From Escherichia phage ECO07P3, in sequence record OP172786: DNA of 64,000 bases. The stretch is one strand, 5' to 3'. The notes beneath the pieces are model-generated. The model made no database searches. It was given only the letters and a program-made list of their open reading frames with translations, and had not been told where the DNA came from. The position numbers were made by a program, and so were the translations under genes. Below are positions 9,853 through 42,863 of this stretch, piece by piece. Within the stretch, counting starts at the first letter, position 1; each line of letters opens with the position of its first letter.

Positions 9853-10138
9853 CAATCATATCCTCAATCTGCGATCTAGTAGTCTTCCAAAGAATACTAA
9901 TGAGTTCATCGTTATATGGCTGTTTTAGAATATCCCGACTTTTCTTGATAGCATATTCGTATTGAGCAAAATTATTGTTTTCAGCTGCAATCTGAGCGTG
10001 TTTATAAAGACGGTTCAGTTCGCGTTTATTTTTAGACAATAACTTATTTGCTTTTCTTTCTGCTTCAAGACGGTTCTTTTCTTCAATAGAAGAAATAAGC
10101 TTTTCCACTTCATCATTAATTTCGGGTTTATCAGTCAT
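9821..10138 (-). CDS. hypothetical protein (coiled-coil)
   Basis: 105-aa ORF, ATG at 10138 after GAGAAATAAT. Confidence 0.5.
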   Translation of the reverse strand: MTDKPEINDEVEKLISSIEEKNRLEAERKANKLLSKNKRELNRLYKHAQIAAENNNFAQYEYAIKKSRDILKQPYNDELISILWKTTRSQIEDMIDAYTRKIQAS

Positions 10139-10139
10139 A

Positions 10140-10358
10140 TTATTTCTCTAATATAAAATAAAAATCATCATCTGTTAAATGATACCGATAGTTTAATTCT
10201 ACACCATTAGATTTAAAAGCGGTATCATACGGATTTTCTGGATCAATATCAATGTCAAGAGCTAAAACTTCCCTGAGATACATTTTAAGTAAATAGGGAA
10301 TAGCTTCAACTTCAGGTATTTCTTCCAAGAATCCGGAGAGGTTAATCGTTAGCCTCAT
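10140..10358 (-). CDS. hypothetical protein
   Basis: 72-aa ORF, ATG at 10358. Confidence 0.5.
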
Positions 10359-10899
10359 ATAAAAAATCCAAACTAGGAGAATCGTCTACAACACTTTTCT
10401 TTTCAGCCCCCGGTGTTCTATAGGTTGATTCTTCGTAATGCGTCATTTTATCGTAGATGTCTTGAATAAAAGTTTCATCTACTAACGCAACCATATCGTC
10501 GTCACGACTGTCATAGACATTGTGAACGAAGTAACTATATTTCTTTGCAACTTCCTTACGTTCTTTTTTAATACGTTGGACGAATGCATTAAAACAAGCT
10601 TGAGTTATATATGCATGTGGGTTTTTATATTTCGTTTCATCAAAATTATGAAGTCCCTTAATAGAAGCTTCTATACCATCTGCAATCATTTCTTGTTTCC
10701 AAGATTGGGTGTATCCTGAAAAGTTGAAACGTTTAGATAAGCCTTCTGCAATAAGCATAATGGCTAATCCGATAGTATCATTCTGACGAACTACTTTATT
10801 TGGGTCTTTATTATTTGCTAATTCTGTTTTCCAATCAATAATAGCTTGTAAAAGCTCTTTATTGTTTACGTAATTATATTTAGGCTTAGTTTCTGACAT
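10342..10899 (-). CDS. 55: late-transcription sigma factor gp55
   Basis: Translation [53 protein letters not shown]... matches remembered T4 gp55; ATG at 10899 gives 185 aa. Confidence 0.92.
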
Positions 10900-16830: not shown

Positions 16831-17151
16831 TTATAGCGTAATCCATTCTCGTATTGTCTGAGTTACTACACGTTCACGGGGCTCGACTAGTTCAACAGTC
16901 GGAACTGCATAATACCAGTCAGAATGGTAAGAACCTGAGCGAGATTCATTTACAGACACATGTACGTTATGTTTTGGACTAAAATAAACGCACTGCCGAT
17001 ATTGGCATTTGCCATCTTGTACCCAATCTTCTATTTCGACAGGTTTAAGATAATCCGAAAAATCGAAATCATAATTTTCTGAAAATGCATCATGGTCTTC
17101 GATGATTTCACTCAGAACTGCATCAACATCTAATTTATTTTCAATAGTCAT
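16831..17151 (-). CDS. hypothetical protein
   Basis: 106-aa acidic ORF. Confidence 0.5.
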   Translation of the reverse strand: MTIENKLDVDAVLSEIIEDHDAFSENYDFDFSDYLKPVEIEDWVQDGKCQYRQCVYFSPKHNVHVSVNESRSGSYHSDWYYAVPTVELVEPRERVVTQTIREWITL

Positions 17152-17811: not shown

Positions 17812-18054
17812 TTATTCCTTAATTCCTAGTACTTGTTTAAAAGTCTCGTCGTAATCAAGACTTTGACCTGTTTGTTCTTTATGTTTGTATATAATATCAC
17901 TTACTTCTGATAGCATATTTTTATATGAACGAGTTAAAGCAGATTTAAGCACGCTATATCTATCAGGAAATTTACCATGTTCATTATAATACGCTATTGC
18001 TAATTCACGGACTGCCTTTTCAGCAGTCTCCATATATTCTTTACGCTTTGTCAT
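17812..18054 (-). CDS. hypothetical protein
   Basis: 80-aa ORF. Confidence 0.5.
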
Positions 18055-18358
18055 TTTCTTCTCGGTTAAATCGGTGTTTGCAATGACGGCATTTATAACG
18101 AAGATTACTAGTCTGCCAATGGACTAATTGAACCTGTTCAGTACCGCATTTTGGACAGTTCGGAACATTCTTAGAAGCCCTTTCGCGACGTTCAACCATA
18201 GCCATAATAGCATCCCAAGCAGGAGGTTTAAAGTCTAGATCGTCACAACCATGAATCTTTCCGCGCATTTCTAGATCGTCTTCTTCACCAGCCATAATAA
18301 TTTTAATTAGACTGGAATTACTTGAAGCTGCAATATCTTCTAATAAACGCTTTTTCAT
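18041..18358 (-). CDS. zinc-ribbon protein
   Basis: 105-aa ORF with CPKCG...CRHCKH four-cysteine motif. Confidence 0.5.
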
Positions 18359-19284
18359 TTCAGTACCTCAATAGCATCACGTAAACCATTTGCTTTTGCA
18401 TTAAGAGCTTTTAACAATTTGGTATGTTCGGCAATCTGGGCTTCAACTTCAATCAAACGAGCACTGAGATATTCGCGTTCTTCGCTCAGGTTATCAACCT
18501 TTTCTACTTTAGGTTCTTTTACAACTGGCTTATATGTATTAGGATTCTTCAGTTTAATTAGAATGCGTGAACTGTATAGCATTGAACCATTATCTTCGGT
18601 TTCGTCATACATTTCCACTACGTCCATCATCTCCACCATCGTGCAGAGTTTATAAGACAACGAACGAATAGTTTTGTTGTGCTTATTAATTTCTCTAGCT
18701 GTCATGGTGCCGAGATTACGTGAGTAATAATAAGGAACCTGGATATTAATTAATACTGATGAACCACCTGGCTTGTGTGTTACTTCATCAGCAATAACCC
18801 AGTCCTTAACATGAACTGTATTTGTACGGTCATCGCCTGCGGTAAATAGTCTGCGAGCATGCTTAAAAAGCATATTCACTTGGTCGTTGAATTGACAAGC
18901 AAATTTATCAGCAAATTTAGTTTCAGGAATGGTAGATAACCAATCAGCCAAATGGGTCTTTTTAACATCGTTAACAATAGTAAATTCAACCAAATCAGTT
19001 ATAGATGTCTCAGATTTAATAAAGCTCGGCTTCATAAAGTTTTTAATGTTATCACGAGCTATCACAGAAGATAGTAATCGGGAACGTTTGAACCACTCTA
19101 GCAAAGAACCAAGAGAATGTGAATACGCATTTTGTGTATCTTTACAAATATGGTTTTCCCATCCAATATAGTCTAAAAAATCACGAAGAATATTATTGAT
19201 TACTGCTCTATGTCCTATCTGATAATTACGATGTTTAGTAATAAGACTGTCAAAATAATCAATATAATGTTTACGAGTTTTCAT
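18355..19284 (-). CDS. paralogous coiled-coil protein, family member 1
   Basis: 309 aa; N-terminus MKTRKHYIDYFDSLI, internal SRLLSSVIARDNIKNF, C-terminal heptad-rich region; shares these blocks with the next three ORFs. Confidence 0.6.
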   Translation of the reverse strand: MKTRKHYIDYFDSLITKHRNYQIGHRAVINNILRDFLDYIGWENHICKDTQNAYSHSLGSLLEWFKRSRLLSSVIARDNIKNFMKPSFIKSETSITDLVEFTIVNDVKKTHLADWLSTIPETKFADKFACQFNDQVNMLFKHARRLFTAGDDRTNTVHVKDWVIADEVTHKPGGSSVLINIQVPYYYSRNLGTMTAREINKHNKTIRSLSYKLCTMVEMMDVVEMYDETEDNGSMLYSSRILIKLKNPNTYKPVVKEPKVEKVDNLSEEREYLSARLIEVEAQIAEHTKLLKALNAKANGLRDAIEVLK

Positions 19285-19317
19285 GTTCTTCTCACTTGGT
19301 TAATGATTTATACTCCG

Positions 19318-19331
19318 AGCCATCCTTGGCT
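19318..19331 (-). promoter_or_regulatory. intergenic hairpin AGCCA-TCCT-TGGCT (recurrent NCCA-TCCT-TGGN family)
   Basis: Perfect 5-bp inverted repeat around TCCT (AGGA on the transcript) between two paralog genes. Confidence 0.4.
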
Positions 19332-19336
19332 TTAAA

Positions 19337-20338
19337 TTACTTAATTAACTGTAAAGCTTGTTCAAGACGATCCAGACGATTAACAGATTCTTCCCAAATC
19401 CTTTTAGCCTGCTCATATTCTTTCTGCGCTTTATTAGAAATTTCTAGAACTTCTTTATAAGCCTTTTCTAGTGCAATAACTTCTGGACGAATTTCTACAG
19501 GTTCAGGCGAATCATCAAGATTATCCATTAGTTCCTCAAGTGTAATTTCTTCTTTAGGAGTATTCACAATTTCATCACATTTTTGTTGGTAAATTTCTTT
19601 ATTAGTCGGTGAGTACGCACATTTCACTTCACGAAGACTAACTACAATTTTATATCCTTCCCAACCGCATATATTCTTAAAAGGATACGTATGAATATTT
19701 TCTACTGTTTCCATACAAAGTAATGCGGTTTCTAATTGACGAGTTATAGTGCTAGCAATTGAGAAAAATTTATTAATGTTCTTTTGGTTAGTTTCTGGTG
19801 TAAAAAATCCATAATTCACAAAAATAGATACTTTATTTTTATCAAGTTCATATTCTTTTATGATAATCATATCAGAAGCCAAAGGATGAATTTGACGATA
19901 ATCGCCATAACATAATTTAGAAGCTGATTTTAGAATCTGTCCTTTGAAAAGCCTGAAATTACTAATCCAACGACGAGTAAAAATATTCTCAGGGTCTTCT
20001 TTATTATTAAGATGATAAGAATTAACATCACCGAACCAATTATATCCTACTACATCTTTGGTTCGTTTAATTTCTTTCCCAAAATTACCAAGAATATCCC
20101 GATTAACCAAATATGAAAGAAGACGAGACTCTTTAAAGGTTTTCTTGATAACATCTTTATCTACACGACTAGAAATTTTACGAATTTCATGAATAAATTT
20201 AGTAGAAGAAACAATACCTGCATCAACACTATTGAGCCATTGATTGATAATAGAAATAACGCTATTTTGGCCAAACATCGGTATAGCTTTATCATCAATA
20301 ACGCTGTTGAATGATTTGATATATTCGTTACGAGTCAT
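19337..20338 (-). CDS. paralogous coiled-coil protein, family member 2
   Basis: Track start is TTG; ATG at 20338 follows GAGGAGATTAAT; MTRNEYIKSFNSVI..., ESRLLSYLVNRDILGNF, GQILKSASKL; 333 aa. Confidence 0.6.
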   Translation of the reverse strand: MTRNEYIKSFNSVIDDKAIPMFGQNSVISIINQWLNSVDAGIVSSTKFIHEIRKISSRVDKDVIKKTFKESRLLSYLVNRDILGNFGKEIKRTKDVVGYNWFGDVNSYHLNNKEDPENIFTRRWISNFRLFKGQILKSASKLCYGDYRQIHPLASDMIIIKEYELDKNKVSIFVNYGFFTPETNQKNINKFFSIASTITRQLETALLCMETVENIHTYPFKNICGWEGYKIVVSLREVKCAYSPTNKEIYQQKCDEIVNTPKEEITLEELMDNLDDSPEPVEIRPEVIALEKAYKEVLEISNKAQKEYEQAKRIWEESVNRLDRLEQALQLIK

Positions 20339-20366
20339 ATTAATCTCCTCAGTAGAAAGTAAGAAC

Positions 20367-20396
20367 ATTATACCACATCCTTGTGGCAAAGTAAAC
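20367..20396 (-). promoter_or_regulatory. T4-type early promoter (GTTTAC-N18-TATAAT) with CCACA-TCCT-TGTGG hairpin in the spacer
   Basis: Minus strand GTTTAC ... TGGTATAATG; the 14-bp inverted repeat 20373-20386 lies inside the spacer. Confidence 0.55.
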
Positions 20397-21424
20397 TAGT
20401 TCAGTGCATTTAGTGCATTGTTCAGTTTAGAACGTTGCTTTGTCAGATTTTGAACCCTTGACTGAGCTTGTTCTAACACCTTTTCAGCTTCTAGCACTTC
20501 ATTTGTCGCTTTAACGAGTTCATCATCTACTGCCTTAAGAGACTTCTCAATCGCGTCAGCGTGCCATTTTTCTACAGGTTTAAAATTTGAATTTTCAGTA
20601 GGAAGAAAACTCACTTTATTAAGTTTACATGCATCTATATTGCTTGAGCTATACATCCAAAATTTAGGATCGTTTGATGAGTAATTGGATAAATTTAAAT
20701 TTAAGTTATCTTGCACTTCCTGCTTTTTCTCTTGCGTGACTTCGTCCTTTCTCAAAAAATCGTATTTAAATGAAACGATCATATCAAGTTCATACGTTGT
20801 TGTGTCTAATTTAAATCGTTCAAAACGAGGTAAAATCTTAGATTGAACAGCAGCAACAACATCCATATACTTAAATGCTTCTGTCAACTGCGATTTAAGG
20901 CATTCGCAAATTGAAAGAGAATTTTTTGTATTAGGTTTAAAGCTAATTCGTGCAGTTCTGTTATTTTCTTTTAATGGTCTTACTTCCATCTGAAGAGTAT
21001 AACCATCAAATTTCAGGTTCTTTAAGTTAATATCAGAACCTTTCAATCGACTCGCAGTTGATAAAATTTGCTTTAATTGTCTACGGAACAGAGCAATAAA
21101 TCTCCATTCAATACGATAATGATTTGGATTGAAAAATCCAGATGATAAATCGACCTTACTTTGACCAACGCCTTGAACAAATAGAGGATTTTTATAATCA
21201 ATAGTTTTACAGAAATCGGTGAGTTGCTCACGAGCCGTCATTTGTGTAATATACCCCGCTTTACTAAAATTACTCACCCATTCACTGCTATTTAGATACT
21301 TAAAGTGATGAATAACACGATTAACTTTATCAGGGTCTAAATTATTTTCACACAAAAATGTCATAACATCACGAGTATAGCTGGCATTACGAACCATATC
21401 TTCAATTTGAGAACGAGTTTTCAT
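20396..21424 (-). CDS. paralogous coiled-coil protein, family member 3
   Basis: 342 aa; MKTRSQIEDMV..., QMTAREQL, KQILSTASRL; C-terminal coiled coil. Confidence 0.6.
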   Translation of the reverse strand: MKTRSQIEDMVRNASYTRDVMTFLCENNLDPDKVNRVIHHFKYLNSSEWVSNFSKAGYITQMTAREQLTDFCKTIDYKNPLFVQGVGQSKVDLSSGFFNPNHYRIEWRFIALFRRQLKQILSTASRLKGSDINLKNLKFDGYTLQMEVRPLKENNRTARISFKPNTKNSLSICECLKSQLTEAFKYMDVVAAVQSKILPRFERFKLDTTTYELDMIVSFKYDFLRKDEVTQEKKQEVQDNLNLNLSNYSSNDPKFWMYSSSNIDACKLNKVSFLPTENSNFKPVEKWHADAIEKSLKAVDDELVKATNEVLEAEKVLEQAQSRVQNLTKQRSKLNNALNALN

Positions 21425-21432
21425 GGTATTCC

Positions 21433-22323
21433 TTAAGATTTAAGTAAATCAACAATTTTAATTAACTTTTCACGCTCAGATTTAGCTTTACTACTCAGTC
21501 CAGATAGTCTGAAAATTTCATCGTCATATTGTTGAATAGAAATATTCAGCTCTTCAATCTGCTTATTAAAATAATCAATTTGTTCAGAATGTTTTTCGTT
21601 ACTACGAACCGATACAGGTTTTGTAGGCAATGTAGTTGAACTGGATTCATCCGGGCGATAAATTAAAATACAATTTGAACCAATAGGGCATTTTGCACCA
21701 GATGAATATTCTAATGTTCCAGCTTCTTTTAAAACTTCAAAAGCTAAACAGAGATGATGCCCCATATTAACATAATCTGTAGAGTGAGCTCTGATGTAAT
21801 AATCATCTCCACGAATACTAAATTTAAAGCATTTAAGGTCTTCTGTATTATTGGTCTTAAAAATCATTTGTTTATCTAGACCTTTAGCTAATCGAGCGCC
21901 CAATGCTAATAATCGTCGTTGATTTTCCCACAAATCCGCAATCATTTGGTCAAATGATAATTTCGGCATTAGTCGACCATAAAGGTCATATCCTTTATTA
22001 TAATTACGAAGGATTTCACTCGCATTAATACGAGACAACGCTCCAATTTTATTAAGGGCTTTCATAATGCGATTAGATAAACTCATTCCAGACCCGGTTG
22101 TTCGCTGCAAATGTTTTTCTAATCCAAATCCAATATCAACTTTAAACTTATCTAAAATTTCTGCATGAACATCTTTGTCGATAACATTCAAATCCAAAGT
22201 TGGGTTAAATCTATGAAAAAATTTATCTGGCTCTCCACGGCGAAGTACAGTCCATTCATTCATCATTTTTTTATTAACTAATGATTTAATTACTACATTG
22301 ACATTATTAATTACTATTGACAT
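21433..22323 (-). CDS. paralogous coiled-coil protein, family member 4 (more divergent)
   Basis: Track start is GTG; ATG at 22323 follows GAGGAAAAT; RRLLALGARLAKGLDKQ block and C-terminal coiled coil. Confidence 0.55.
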   Translation of the reverse strand: MSIVINNVNVVIKSLVNKKMMNEWTVLRRGEPDKFFHRFNPTLDLNVIDKDVHAEILDKFKVDIGFGLEKHLQRTTGSGMSLSNRIMKALNKIGALSRINASEILRNYNKGYDLYGRLMPKLSFDQMIADLWENQRRLLALGARLAKGLDKQMIFKTNNTEDLKCFKFSIRGDDYYIRAHSTDYVNMGHHLCLAFEVLKEAGTLEYSSGAKCPIGSNCILIYRPDESSSTTLPTKPVSVRSNEKHSEQIDYFNKQIEELNISIQQYDDEIFRLSGLSSKAKSEREKLIKIVDLLKS

Positions 22324-22330
22324 ATTTTCC

Positions 22331-22738
22331 TCACTCAATTTCAATTTTACTAAATACACAGAATATGATTGAACAGACTACATAAGCGCCACACACGGAT
22401 TGAACTAATACCATTCCAAAGAACCAAACAATATTATCAAACAGTGTCTGTTTTACGTCGAAAGGACGTAAACTTACAGTAATATTATCACCTTTTTCTA
22501 TTGAAGAATACATCTCTGGGGAAATATATTCACTAAATCTATAACCGTCTTTGAGTTCATATACGGCAATAAACGATAAACTAGACCCTTTTCCTTGTGT
22601 TCCTGTAATGGTATTAACTACAGTAACATCATAATCTTTATAATGCATATAATCATTAATTGCGTAATAACCATATGCAACTACTACACATAAACAACAT
22701 ATCAATAAATTCAATCTTTTAATTATCAACTGTTTCAT
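22331..22738 (-). CDS. membrane protein
   Basis: 135-aa ORF with hydrophobic segments at both ends. Confidence 0.5.
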   Translation of the reverse strand: MKQLIIKRLNLLICCLCVVVAYGYYAINDYMHYKDYDVTVVNTITGTQGKGSSLSFIAVYELKDGYRFSEYISPEMYSSIEKGDNITVSLRPFDVKQTLFDNIVWFFGMVLVQSVCGAYVVCSIIFCVFSKIEIE

Positions 22739-22767
22739 AATAATCTCAATTAAAAGGGCTTAGAACC

Positions 22768-22795
22768 ATTATACCATCCTTGGTATAAAGCGGTT
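22768..22795 (-). promoter_or_regulatory. candidate middle-type promoter (CGCTTTA box about 18 nt upstream of TATAAT) overlapping TTATACCA-TCCT-TGGTATAA hairpin
   Basis: Minus strand ACCGCTTTATACCAAGGATGGTATAATGG; 8-bp inverted repeat 22769-22788. Confidence 0.35.
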
Positions 22796-23321
22796 ATGCG
22801 AGTACCGTCTTTAACCGTTCTTCAAACTTCCGAAGAGTGTTCTGGCGTTCAGCTCTTTGTTTTTTGTAAGTTTCAATACGCTCTGAAATGAGAGTGTATC
22901 GTTCATTTACTGATTCTTTCATAAAATCAGGAATTTCACGAGAAGCTTTAATCTCGTCAAATTTATCAATAACAGCTTGCTCTTCAGCAATTAAGTTATC
23001 ATACATCAAAATATCTTTCTTGATGAACTCAATATCTTCTTGAGTTACACGAGATAATTTAGATGCTTTATCCTTTTTGTACTGTTCGTTAGTATCACGA
23101 GACCAGTGTAATGTACGATTTTTATTCGTATTTTTGTAAATTTCTACAATACCAATCTCATCGATAATAACGATCCAATTCCAACGAGATTTGTAAATTT
23201 GTCCTCCATCAACAGTGATTTCACCTCCGATTGAGATGTCATTAAAGAACTTGCTTTGTGCTTCAGATTTAAATTTACCATCGTTGTAATTTACCAAGTT
23301 GAAAATATCTTTAGCGTTCAT
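22794..23321 (-). CDS. hypothetical protein
   Basis: 175-aa ORF, ATG at 23321 after GGAGGAACACAAA. Confidence 0.55.
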   Translation of the reverse strand: MNAKDIFNLVNYNDGKFKSEAQSKFFNDISIGGEITVDGGQIYKSRWNWIVIIDEIGIVEIYKNTNKNRTLHWSRDTNEQYKKDKASKLSRVTQEDIEFIKKDILMYDNLIAEEQAVIDKFDEIKASREIPDFMKESVNERYTLISERIETYKKQRAERQNTLRKFEERLKTVLA

Positions 23322-39716: not shown

Positions 39717-39734
39717 AACACCATCCTTGGTGTT
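39717..39734 (-). promoter_or_regulatory. intergenic hairpin AACACCA-TCCT-TGGTGTT
   Basis: Perfect 7-bp inverted repeat around TCCT; fourth member of the NCCA-TCCT-TGGN family. Confidence 0.4.
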
Positions 39735-41841: not shown

Positions 41842-41917
41842 TGGTCGAGGCAGTAGGGATCGAACCTACGACCTAGGACTTAGAAGGTCCTTGCTCTTCC
41901 TTCTGAGCTATGCCCCG
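41842..41917 (-). tRNA. tRNA-Arg (anticodon UCU)
   Basis: 76 nt incl. CCA; manual cloverleaf: acceptor CGGGGCA/UGCCUCG, D-stem GCUC/GAGC, anticodon loop CUUCUAA, T-arm GUAGG-UUCGAUC-CCUAC. Confidence 0.85.
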
Positions 41918-41921
41918 TAAT

Positions 41922-41997
41922 TGGGGTGACCGATGGGAGTCGAACCCATGACTACGAGAATCACAATCTCGAGTTCTACCAACTGAACTACGGCCAC
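41922..41997 (-). tRNA. tRNA-His (anticodon GUG)
   Basis: 76 nt incl. CCA; acceptor GUGGCCG/CGGUCAC, discriminator C73, anticodon loop UUGUGAU, T-arm AUGGG-UUCGACU-CCCAU; no encoded G-1. Confidence 0.75.
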
Positions 41998-42111
41998 ATT
42001 AATACCTACTCCAACAATCAAGATGTCTTCACACGAAATTAAGAGAAGAGTGATCAGTTCAACCCCGATAATCGCGTCAAGTAGATATTAATGTGACAAT
42101 TGTCACAAATT

Positions 42112-42186
42112 TGGCGGACGTGATAGGATTCGAACCTATAACCAATCGCTTAACAGGCGATCGCTCTGCCATTGAGCTACACATCC
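42112..42186 (-). tRNA. tRNA-Asn (anticodon GUU)
   Basis: 75 nt incl. CCA; acceptor GGAUGUG/CACGUCC, anticodon stem AUCGC/GCGAU with loop CUGUUAA, T-arm AUAGG-UUCGAAU-CCUAU. Confidence 0.8.
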
Positions 42187-42190
42187 AAAT

Positions 42191-42277
42191 TGGTGGGGAG
42201 TGATGGAGTCGAACCACCCGAGTCGCAATGACAATGGATTTACAGTCCACACCGCTACCTCTACGGGATAACTCCCC
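42191..42277 (-). tRNA. tRNA-Tyr (anticodon GUA), long variable arm
   Basis: 87 nt incl. CCA; acceptor GGGGAGU/ACUCCCC, anticodon stem GUGGA/UCCAU with loop CUGUAAA, long variable arm, T-arm GGUGG-UUCGACU-CCAUC. Confidence 0.7.
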
Positions 42278-42290
42278 TTAATTCTTAATT

Positions 42291-42365
42291 TGGTGGCCCT
42301 GGGTGGAATTGAACCACCATCTGGCGATTATGAGTCGCTTGCTTGAACCTTCCAGCTACAGGGCC
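42291..42365 (-). tRNA. tRNA with CAU anticodon (Ile-type as in T4, or Met)
   Basis: 75 nt incl. CCA; acceptor GGCCCUG/CAGGGCC, anticodon loop CUCAUAA, T-arm GGUGG-UUCAAUU-CCACC. Confidence 0.75.
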
Positions 42366-42366
42366 T

Positions 42367-42442
42367 TGGTGCTGATTGACGGAATCGAACCGCCGACATC
42401 CTCATTACAAGTGAGTTGCTCTACCTACTGAGCTAAATCAGC
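42367..42442 (-). tRNA. tRNA-Thr (anticodon UGU)
   Basis: 76 nt incl. CCA; acceptor GCUGAUU/AAUCAGC, anticodon loop CUUGUAA, T-arm GGCGG-UUCGAUU-CCGUC. Confidence 0.85.
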
Positions 42443-42447
42443 AAAAC

Positions 42448-42537
42448 TGGCGGAGGCGATAGGATTTGAACCTATGAGTCGCCGGAGCGACTGCCGGTTT
42501 TCAAGACCGGTGCATTAAACCACTCTGCCACGCCTCC
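42448..42537 (-). tRNA. tRNA-Ser (anticodon UGA), long variable arm
   Basis: 90 nt; sequence GGAGGCGUGGCAGAGUGGUUUAAUGCACCGGUCUUGAAAACCGG... with anticodon loop CUUGAAA and T-arm AUAGG-UUCAAAU-CCUAU. Confidence 0.85.
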
Positions 42538-42539
42538 AG

Positions 42540-42613
42540 TCTCCATACAAGGATTTGAACCTTGGGCCTCCTGATCCCAAATCAGGCGCTCTACCAAACT
42601 GAGCTACACGGAG
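42540..42613 (-). tRNA. tRNA-Pro (anticodon UGG), CCA not encoded
   Basis: Acceptor CUCCGUG/UAUGGAG, anticodon loop UUUGGGA, T-arm CAAGG-UUCAAAU-CCUUG; abuts tRNA-Ser as in the T4 Pro-Ser dimeric precursor. Confidence 0.85.
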
Positions 42614-42623
42614 TAAATTAAAT

Positions 42624-42697
<74 letters not shown>

Positions 42698-42702
42698 AAA
42701 TT

Positions 42703-42789
42703 TGGTGCGAGAAGTGGGACTCGAACCCACAAGGAAATCATTCCGCAGCATTTTAAGTGCTGTGCCTTTACCAATTTGACCATTCTCGC
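42703..42789 (-). tRNA. tRNA-Leu (anticodon UAA), long variable arm
   Basis: 87 nt incl. CCA; acceptor GCGAGAA/UUCUCGC, anticodon stem CAGCA/UGCUG with loop CUUAAAA, T-arm GUGGG-UUCGAGU-CCCAC. Confidence 0.85.
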
Positions 42790-42790
42790 G

Positions 42791-42863
42791 CTGGGAATAA
42801 AGGACTCGAACCTTTGCATCCTGGAATCAAAATCCAGTGCCTTACCAACTTGGCTAATTCCCA
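42791..42863 (-). tRNA. tRNA-Gln (anticodon UUG), CCA not encoded
   Basis: Acceptor UGGGAAU/AUUCCCA, anticodon loop UUUUGAU, T-arm AAAGG-UUCGAGU-CCUUU; 1 nt from tRNA-Leu as in the T4 Gln-Leu precursor. Confidence 0.85.

Follow-up and report, generated by a model that had tools for sequence, protein, structure and literature searches.

The window analysed here, a stretch of 64,000 nucleotides (nt) from Escherichia phage ECO07P3 (sequence record OP172786), contains four consecutive genes that correspond to nrdC.3, nrdC.4, nrdC.5 and nrdC.6 of phage T4. We favour, with moderate confidence, a reading in which nrdC.3-nrdC.6 constitute an anciently duplicated and strongly diverged array of one superfamily that is diversifying against host defence or host-range factors. 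That all four share a common ancestry is very likely when sequence and structure are combined. Four consecutive open reading frames (ORFs) of about 300-340 amino acids (aa) had been described in an original prediction made from the DNA alone, and they were found as described, all on the minus strand. Gene names were taken from the T4 annotation by matching position.

18355-19284, minus strand: member 1, nrdC.3 orthologue, 309 aa (from the ORF and its T4 position)
19337-20338, minus strand: member 2, nrdC.4 orthologue, 333 aa counted from the ATG, or 350 aa if a TTG at 20389 were used
20396-21424, minus strand: member 3, nrdC.5 orthologue, 342 aa, the orthologue of the published anti-Dsr1 protein
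21433-22323, minus strand: member 4, nrdC.6 orthologue, 296 aa counted from the ATG, or 308 aa if a GTG at 22359 were used

Member 1 aligns with member 2 by BLASTP at 25% identity over 275 aa (expectation value, E, of 2e-7 in a four-sequence database), and none of the other member pairs gave a significant BLASTP match. Profiles were then compared with hhalign, using non-redundant family alignments that combine database homologues with the loci of Gaprivervirus VR7, Dhakavirus MX01, Mosigvirus moha and the Tequatroviruses T4 and EC121. The NrdC.3 and NrdC.4 family profiles match at 98.1% with E 9e-14, NrdC.4 and NrdC.5 at E 7e-5 over 227 collinear columns, NrdC.3 and NrdC.5 at E 2e-4, NrdC.5 and NrdC.6 at E 8e-5 in the central region, and NrdC.3 and NrdC.6 at E 2e-3 in a match confined to the C-terminus. 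Real full-length scores of 37-41 lie about 10 standard deviations (sd) above those of column-shuffled controls (mean about 15, sd about 2.2, maximum 21-25), and reversed profiles score 16-19. When the C-terminal helix was removed and only the N-terminal parts were compared, the matches persisted for NrdC.3-NrdC.4 (E 4e-14), NrdC.4-NrdC.5 (3e-4), NrdC.5-NrdC.6 (3e-3) and NrdC.3-NrdC.5 (0.011), while NrdC.4-NrdC.6 (0.075) and NrdC.3-NrdC.6 (0.29) were not significant on their own. The similarity in these alignments thus extends beyond coiled-coil composition and exceeds chance.

A single-copy relative from an Enterobacter phage, Q7622 gp093 (338 aa), bridges two of the families as it is matched by the hidden Markov models (HMMs) of both NrdC.5 (9e-10) and NrdC.6 (3e-8), the latter match taking in the central helix NWRMILALGSRL. 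An alignment of sixteen sequences was found to be collinear and contains five recurring blocks:

Block 1, N-terminal: M-x-T-R-x-E
Block 2: S-x-x-L-S-R-x-x-A-x-x-x-L-x-N-F
Block 3: F-x-x-x-F-x-x-N-x-x-x-I-L-A-x-A-x-R-L-x-x-G
Block 4, before the last helix: P-V-x-x-E
Block 5, terminal: R-x-K-L-x-x-A-x-x-x-L-K

Most of the short motifs on which the original prediction relied have a counterpart in this alignment. Member 4 lacks the N-terminal M(K)TR-x-x-(Y)I motif, which members 1, 2 and 3 share with distant relatives of NrdC.5. The SRLLS...RD..NF block was seen in members 1 and 2, and it aligns with QMTAREQLTDF in member 3 and with LSRINASEILRNY in member 4. The strings ILKSASKL, KQILSTASRL and RRLLALGARLAKGL align across all families, and both structural models described below place them in the long central helix. 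The QMTARE string is indeed present in members 1 and 3, but at non-equivalent positions (around residue 195 and around residue 62), and this likeness was taken as chance.

A search of 1.84 billion representatives with the NrdC.5 profile (HMMER) returned thirteen clusters only and reached none of the other three families, so that it is no proof of the link by itself. Sequence and profile searches against the PDB found no relative; the profile matches obtained there are weak, and all of them are coiled-coil look-alikes.

Existing family classifications divide the array. Members 1 and 2 match phrog_1435, member 3 matches phrog_2351 and member 4 matches phrog_2257, and the precomputed Pfam labels for the array are PF26897, PF23882 and PF26899. 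Member 3 matches the Pfam model DUF7235 (PF23882) over the whole profile with 397.7 bits (cut-off 30, E 5e-119), and it is 95.3% identical to T4 NrdC.5 over 340 residues, with the same genomic position and identical neighbours on either side. Members 1, 2 and 4 do not match DUF7235 in Pfam even at E<=1. Judged by sequence, only member 3 is assigned to the NrdC.5/DUF7235 family; members 1, 2 and 4 fail that model but resemble T4 NrdC.5 in architecture, and profiles and structure indicate the same ancestry. Apart from DUF7235 in member 3, scans with Pfam, NCBIfam and PADLOC were uninformative, and sub-threshold matches to PHL, the XerD N-terminal domain, SEC10/PgrA and BrxC were treated as noise. 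The XerD/tyrosine-recombinase N-terminal domain match falls on residues 30-86 of member 1, in the N-terminal helical region (E 0.003).

Two members, NrdC.4 and NrdC.6, were modelled with AlphaFold2. The NrdC.4 model (predicted local distance difference test score, pLDDT, of 83) begins with six N-terminal helices (residues 3-84) followed by a three-stranded beta unit, a long helix (116-140), a hairpin, a helix (185-208) and a second hairpin, and then passes through a low-confidence linker into one helix of 48 residues (285-332). The NrdC.6 model (pLDDT 79) has the same order of elements with the first beta unit reduced, and its C-terminal helix is kinked (242-272 and 278-295; 31 and 18 aa). Searched against BFVD with Foldseek, the NrdC.4 model gave full-length matches in many T4-like genera, the proteins matched being uncharacterised and about 300-370 aa long. 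Six of the BFVD proteins matched by NrdC.4 are also matched by the NrdC.6 model (IME523, PM2, Acj61, Cronus, fHe-Yen9-01 and Mineola). The models point to a common architecture in which an N-terminal helical region leads into an alpha/beta core, and a flexible linker connects this core to a C-terminal amphipathic helix of 45-55 residues. The predicted core runs in the order long helix, beta-hairpin, helix, beta-hairpin. We tentatively describe this core as tail-terminator-like. No tail-terminator sequence family was matched in Pfam, NCBIfam or PHROG, and the array is unlike a single late essential tail gene as it lies on the early strand, is multi-copy and consists of genes that are non-essential in T4.

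All four proteins reach the maximum of a crude heptad score within their last 60 residues, and the NrdC.4 and NrdC.6 models place helices there. When the C-termini are right-justified, a common module ending in L-x-x-A-[LIV]-x-x-L-K is seen in the four proteins. An HMM of this module matched only the four ORFs among the 170 ORFs of the window (next best E 0.24); being trained on the same four families, it shows specificity and not independence. One neighbouring gene was considered as a fifth member and rejected. The NrdC.8 orthologue ends in a helix but reaches only E 0.25 with the module HMM and has no support from the superfamily HMM, which also gives no match to nrdC.7. Profile comparison, the bridging protein Q7622 gp093, and the topology and BFVD matches of the two models together support the proposal of divergent tandem paralogs.

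The proposed function draws on published work with T4. A T4 clone with deletions fails on ECOR17 through Dsr1, and expression of T4 nrdC.5 restores infection of MG1655 carrying dsr1; the other paralogs are unmentioned in that study (Srikant, Guegler and Laub, eLife 2022, PMC9391042). Dsr1 is a SIR2-domain (sirtuin) protein that is thought to disrupt cellular NAD+. Its sensor, a homologue of the Avs7 sensor, responds to the major capsid protein, and tail terminators are sensed by another Avs family (PMC13581612). All four of the T4 genes nrdC.3 to nrdC.6 were scored non-essential by transposon saturation in a laboratory host (preprint supplement). In the genes around the array, OLD is inhibited by Gp49.2 (PMC13096335), whereas T4 nrdC.1 encodes a Septu inhibitor and bas37_0203 a Druantia III inhibitor (2025 preprint). 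The corresponding genes in the window are:

16831-17151, minus strand: Gp49.2 orthologue (OLD inhibitor), 95% identical to T4
17812-18054, minus strand: NrdC.1 orthologue (Septu inhibitor), 100% identical to T4
22794-23321, minus strand: NrdC.8 orthologue (Druantia III inhibitor), 99% identical to bas37_0203

The array thus lies within a dense island of counter-defence genes. We had suspected bas37_0203 to be one of the paralogs; mapping placed it as the NrdC.8 orthologue, and the four paralogs correspond to bas37_0198 to bas37_0201. The host-range or anti-defence role suggested earlier for the array finds support in the action of T4 NrdC.5 against Dsr1, in the flanking inhibitors, in the dispensability of the genes and in their variation in copy number and alleles.

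The window belongs to a Tequatrovirus (T4-like) genome with a G+C content of about 35% and minus-strand genes up to about 48 kb, and the array is placed between nrdC and mobD on the early strand. Positions 18355-22359 matched 656 phage records by megablast, nearly all of them Tequatrovirus, at 80-99% identity. A tblastn search of 50,697 phage records found nrdC.3 in 653, nrdC.4 in 555, nrdC.5 in 534 and nrdC.6 in 741. Copy number differs by lineage, with three or four copies in Tequatroviruses, three each in Mosigvirus, Dhakavirus and Gaprivervirus, and one, in the regions fetched, in Jiaodavirus, Kanagawavirus and one Acinetobacter phage.

One of these changes could be followed to its breakpoint. 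Phage EC121 is without nrdC.4, and its nrdC.3 carries the promoter cassette, the ribosome-binding site and the ATG-ACT-CGT-AA of nrdC.4, so that the chimeric start reads MTRKHY.... This nrdC.4-type 5' end on nrdC.3 indicates an unequal crossover in the 8-nt ACTCGTAA common to both paralog starts. NrdC.3 itself is a mosaic when compared with T4, as residues 1-75 are 96% identical and residues 76-130 and 161-250 only 44% identical, a pattern that points to an exchanged core. Members of the array are gained, lost and swapped by recombination at promoter cassettes and at short stretches common to the 5' ends of the paralogs.

The ratio of nonsynonymous to synonymous substitution rates (dN/dS, Nei-Gojobori) is 0.12-0.40 for the four array genes and 0-0.09 for genes 49, nrdC, nrdC.1, nrdC.2, nrdC.8 and nrdC.10. 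The array values lie above those of these flanking genes; the non-paralogous nrdC.7 has elevated values too (0.18-0.43). The divergence looks like relaxed constraint combined with cassette swapping or local diversification and not like pervasive positive selection.

Several individual sequences show or suggest other changes. In one database protein (P0119, seen on contigs of about 167 kb), a KVN microhomology marks the junction between NrdC.5 residues 146-274 and NrdC.3 residues 129-309, and in the NrdC.6 of Shigella phage Sf25 (P0121) a stretch of about 82 residues is duplicated internally; these two point to frequent rearrangement within the array. A third protein of 173 aa (P0229), from an 803-nt metagenome contig, has an unrelated N-terminus on a near-identical NrdC.5 C-terminal helix. 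No phage record matched this N-terminus, and the protein may represent either a genuine domain swap or a chimera made during assembly. In the T4 record NC_000866, nrdC.6 (10067-10894 of the T4 locus compared here) is short of one A in GAGCTGAATATT relative to positions 21433-21580 of the window and is consequently annotated as 275 aa with no C-terminal helix, although the DNA downstream still encodes that helix. The missing A is a mutation of the reference strain or a sequencing error; in the T4 stock of the HIDEN-SEQ preprint, nrdC.6 is annotated as full-length (891 nt).

Three spacers within and next to the array contain a promoter-like element with a hairpin, and nrdC.7 is the first gene of the nrdC.7-nrdC.6-nrdC.5 unit, which is tightly packed with gaps of only 7 and 8 nt:

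19285-19336, minus strand: degenerate PeSL-like spacer before nrdC.3, with hairpin GCCA-AGGA-TGGC (19319-19330) followed by TATAAAT (19306-19312)
20339-20397, minus strand: PeSL cassette between nrdC.5 and nrdC.4, with GTTTAC (20392-20397), hairpin GCCACA-AGGA-TGTGGT (20373-20388) and TATAAT (20368-20373)
22331-22738, minus strand: nrdC.7 orthologue, a predicted membrane protein (from the ORF and the T4 annotation)
22739-22800, minus strand: PmSL-like middle-promoter cassette before nrdC.7, with Mot box GCTT (22788-22791), hairpin TATACCA-AGGA-TGGTATA (22770-22787) and TATAAT (22768-22773)

At all three sites a hairpin of the form CCA(NN)AGGA(NN)TGG stands just upstream of a TATAAT-like box. 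The cassette before nrdC.4 fits the PST/T4 PeSL consensus TTTACW-N17-TAYWAT with a stem-loop (PMC4122927); its GTTTAC overlaps the nrdC.5 stop codon at a spacing of 17 from the TATAAT, and its hairpin folds at -14.4 kcal/mol (z -2.1). In the nrdC.3 spacer the -35 box is lost and the hairpin is weaker (-8.4 kcal/mol, z -1.3). T4, SA20RB and Bas37 all keep this element in the corresponding position, whereas EC121 has the nrdC.4 cassette instead. The nrdC.7 cassette is conserved in Gaprivervirus and Dhakavirus loci, and hairpin-in-promoter elements recur at equivalent places in four genera. The count of the exact hairpin 10-mer is not significant alone, being reached by 10 of 100 shuffles. The early-promoter-like elements and hairpins of the original prediction are real, and they are already explained as known PeSL and PmSL cassettes, which mark the hyperplastic regions of T4-like genomes (Arbiol et al. 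2010; Comeau et al. 2014; PMC2839356, PMC4122927).

The depositors of SA20RB annotate, by consensus, a T4 early promoter at the site of the nrdC.4 cassette and a T4 middle promoter with a terminator at that of the nrdC.7 cassette. T4 GenBank records hold no promoter features in this region, so that the predicted promoters rest on the consensus and on the computational annotation of this one depositor. An Rfam scan of the region found no RNA family. A fourth hairpin copy, CACCA-AGGA-TGGTG, occurs at 39719-39732 (minus strand; fold z -2.0) in another early intergenic spacer and is probably another element of the PeSL type. Elsewhere in the window, eleven Rfam tRNA matches cluster at 41845-42863 (minus strand), one of which only just passes its cut-off of 29 bits, with 30.2 bits. 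There are eight tRNAs in the tRNA region of T4.

Database names for these proteins are also worth a caution. Homologues of nrdC.3 to nrdC.8 are named 'thioredoxin' in many T4-like GenBank genomes, and single homologues carry the labels 'Mur ligase domain-containing protein' or 'putative ligase domain-containing protein'. None of the four proteins has a thioredoxin match in Pfam, PHROGs or NCBIfam, and the NrdC.4 and NrdC.6 models show another fold. The 'thioredoxin' labels are wrong, and the nrdC.x gene names are their apparent source.

The proposed course of events begins with the early and middle PeSL/PmSL cassettes, which would drive the genes so that the proteins are expected in this phage soon after infection, ahead of the late structural proteins. 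The variable N-terminal and core parts would then bind a defence protein, each acting as a stoichiometric inhibitor, and the C-terminal helix may render the inhibitor oligomeric. NrdC.3, NrdC.4 and NrdC.6 would have diverged toward other host defence or host-range factors.

Several points weigh against the array being one superfamily devoted to host defence or host-range factors. The direct comparison of the NrdC.4 and NrdC.6 profiles is not significant (hhalign E 0.07), and the link between these two families is made through NrdC.5 by transitivity, through the bridging protein and through the predicted structures. Those structures derive from shallow alignments of 20-22 sequences, and the six common BFVD matches, with E between 1e-7 and 2e-3 and a probability of 1.00, have modest template modelling (TM) scores of 0.28-0.49. 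The mean dN/dS of the array genes is below 1, with no gene-wide positive selection. An anti-defence role is demonstrated for one of the four proteins only, and in T4 and not in this phage; in the accessible literature no experiment sets NrdC.3, NrdC.4 or NrdC.6 against a defence system. Both the direct binding of a defence protein and the role of the C-terminal helix in oligomerisation are inferred.

An explanation that accepts the paralogy assigns the members other than NrdC.5 to some other dispensable role early in infection, for example in host takeover, in regulation, or in the chaperoning or regulation of virion assembly. The tail-terminator-like core does suggest a virion-assembly role, but no Pfam tail-terminator family is matched. 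The early-transcribed accessory region in which the genes lie includes four published anti-defence genes, and the genes themselves can be dispensed with in the laboratory host and differ among phages in copy number and alleles. We consider this explanation unlikely.

A still less probable proposal, which we rate as a long shot, is that the proteins are early-expressed mimics of a tail-terminator-like virion fold that occupy the surfaces of Avs/Dsr-type sensors without activating them. The superfamily would then be an exapted tail-terminator-like fold joined to an oligomerising helix, and its members diversifying non-activating decoys each tuned to a different sensor (Dsr1/Avs7-type or other Avs), a picture to which we give equally little credence. 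A tail-terminator decoy against Dsr1 lost weight as Dsr1 senses a capsid protein.

That the four genes are unrelated and resemble each other only in coiled-coil composition and chance motifs agrees with the non-significant BLASTP results for every pair but members 1-2, with the split into three families in Pfam and PHROGs and with the coincidental QMTARE motif, but it is largely refuted and highly improbable since the profile similarity survives removal of the C-terminal helix far above reversed and shuffled controls, and the bridging homologue, the collinear alignments and the full-length fold matches common to both models speak against it.

The array, read as a diversifying set of paralogs directed at host factors, can be compared with several known systems. 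For NrdC.5 itself no published mechanism was found in the literature searched. A functional analogue is DSAD1 of an SPbeta-group phage, which is reported to block DSR2, a SIR2 NADase that senses a phage structural protein, through direct binding (PMC10973363, PMC11087589). It differs from our case in that DSAD1 targets DSR2, a tail-tube sensor, in Bacillus phages and is not known to form a multi-copy family with coiled-coil tails. The likeness is functional, no sequence or structural relation between DSAD1 and the NrdC family having been found or looked for. Tail terminator or completion proteins (lambda gpU, T5 p142, SPP1 gp17-like, DUF3168) have no sequence similarity to the array and resemble it only in the grey zone. 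They are single late structural genes, whereas the array genes are early, dispensable and multi-copy, and their products are extended by an N-terminal helical portion and a predicted C-terminal coiled coil.

The promoter cassettes share with published PeSL and PmSL elements a TTTACW-N17-TAYWAT or Mot box, a stem-loop between the boxes, a position in a hyperplastic region and variable flanking genes. They differ in having a conserved AGGA loop with CCA/TGG arms that recurs before paralogous genes. Moreover, the EC121 crossover, the sole copy-number change resolved, lies inside coding starts and not in a cassette. In T-even anti-defence islands (the dmd-tifA-adfA region; 49.2, nrdC.1 and nrdC.8), small early dispensable genes are likewise clustered, and each of them disarms a different host defence and is lost or amplified under selection. 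The genes of those islands are unrelated to each other, unlike the four adjacent genes described here that have one ancestor.

The T4 ORFs and the role of one of them, NrdC.5, were already known. The common ancestry, the shared architecture and, tentatively, the tail-terminator-like core are new, and no statement of the kinship or fold of the four genes was found in the literature. The finding adds to known biology and describes no new type of system. Members of the family occur widely among T4-like phages infecting Escherichia, Klebsiella, Enterobacter, Acinetobacter, Erwinia, Serratia, Yersinia and Aeromonas, and its predicted architecture splits a variable head from a constant, putatively oligomerising tail. 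The locus provides a concrete case in which the 5' ends of paralogs and PeSL cassettes alter the copy number of host-range genes. No phage protein other than NrdC.5 has been reported to block Dsr1 in the literature searched, and NrdC.3, NrdC.4 and NrdC.6 are three immediate candidate inhibitors of other defence systems.

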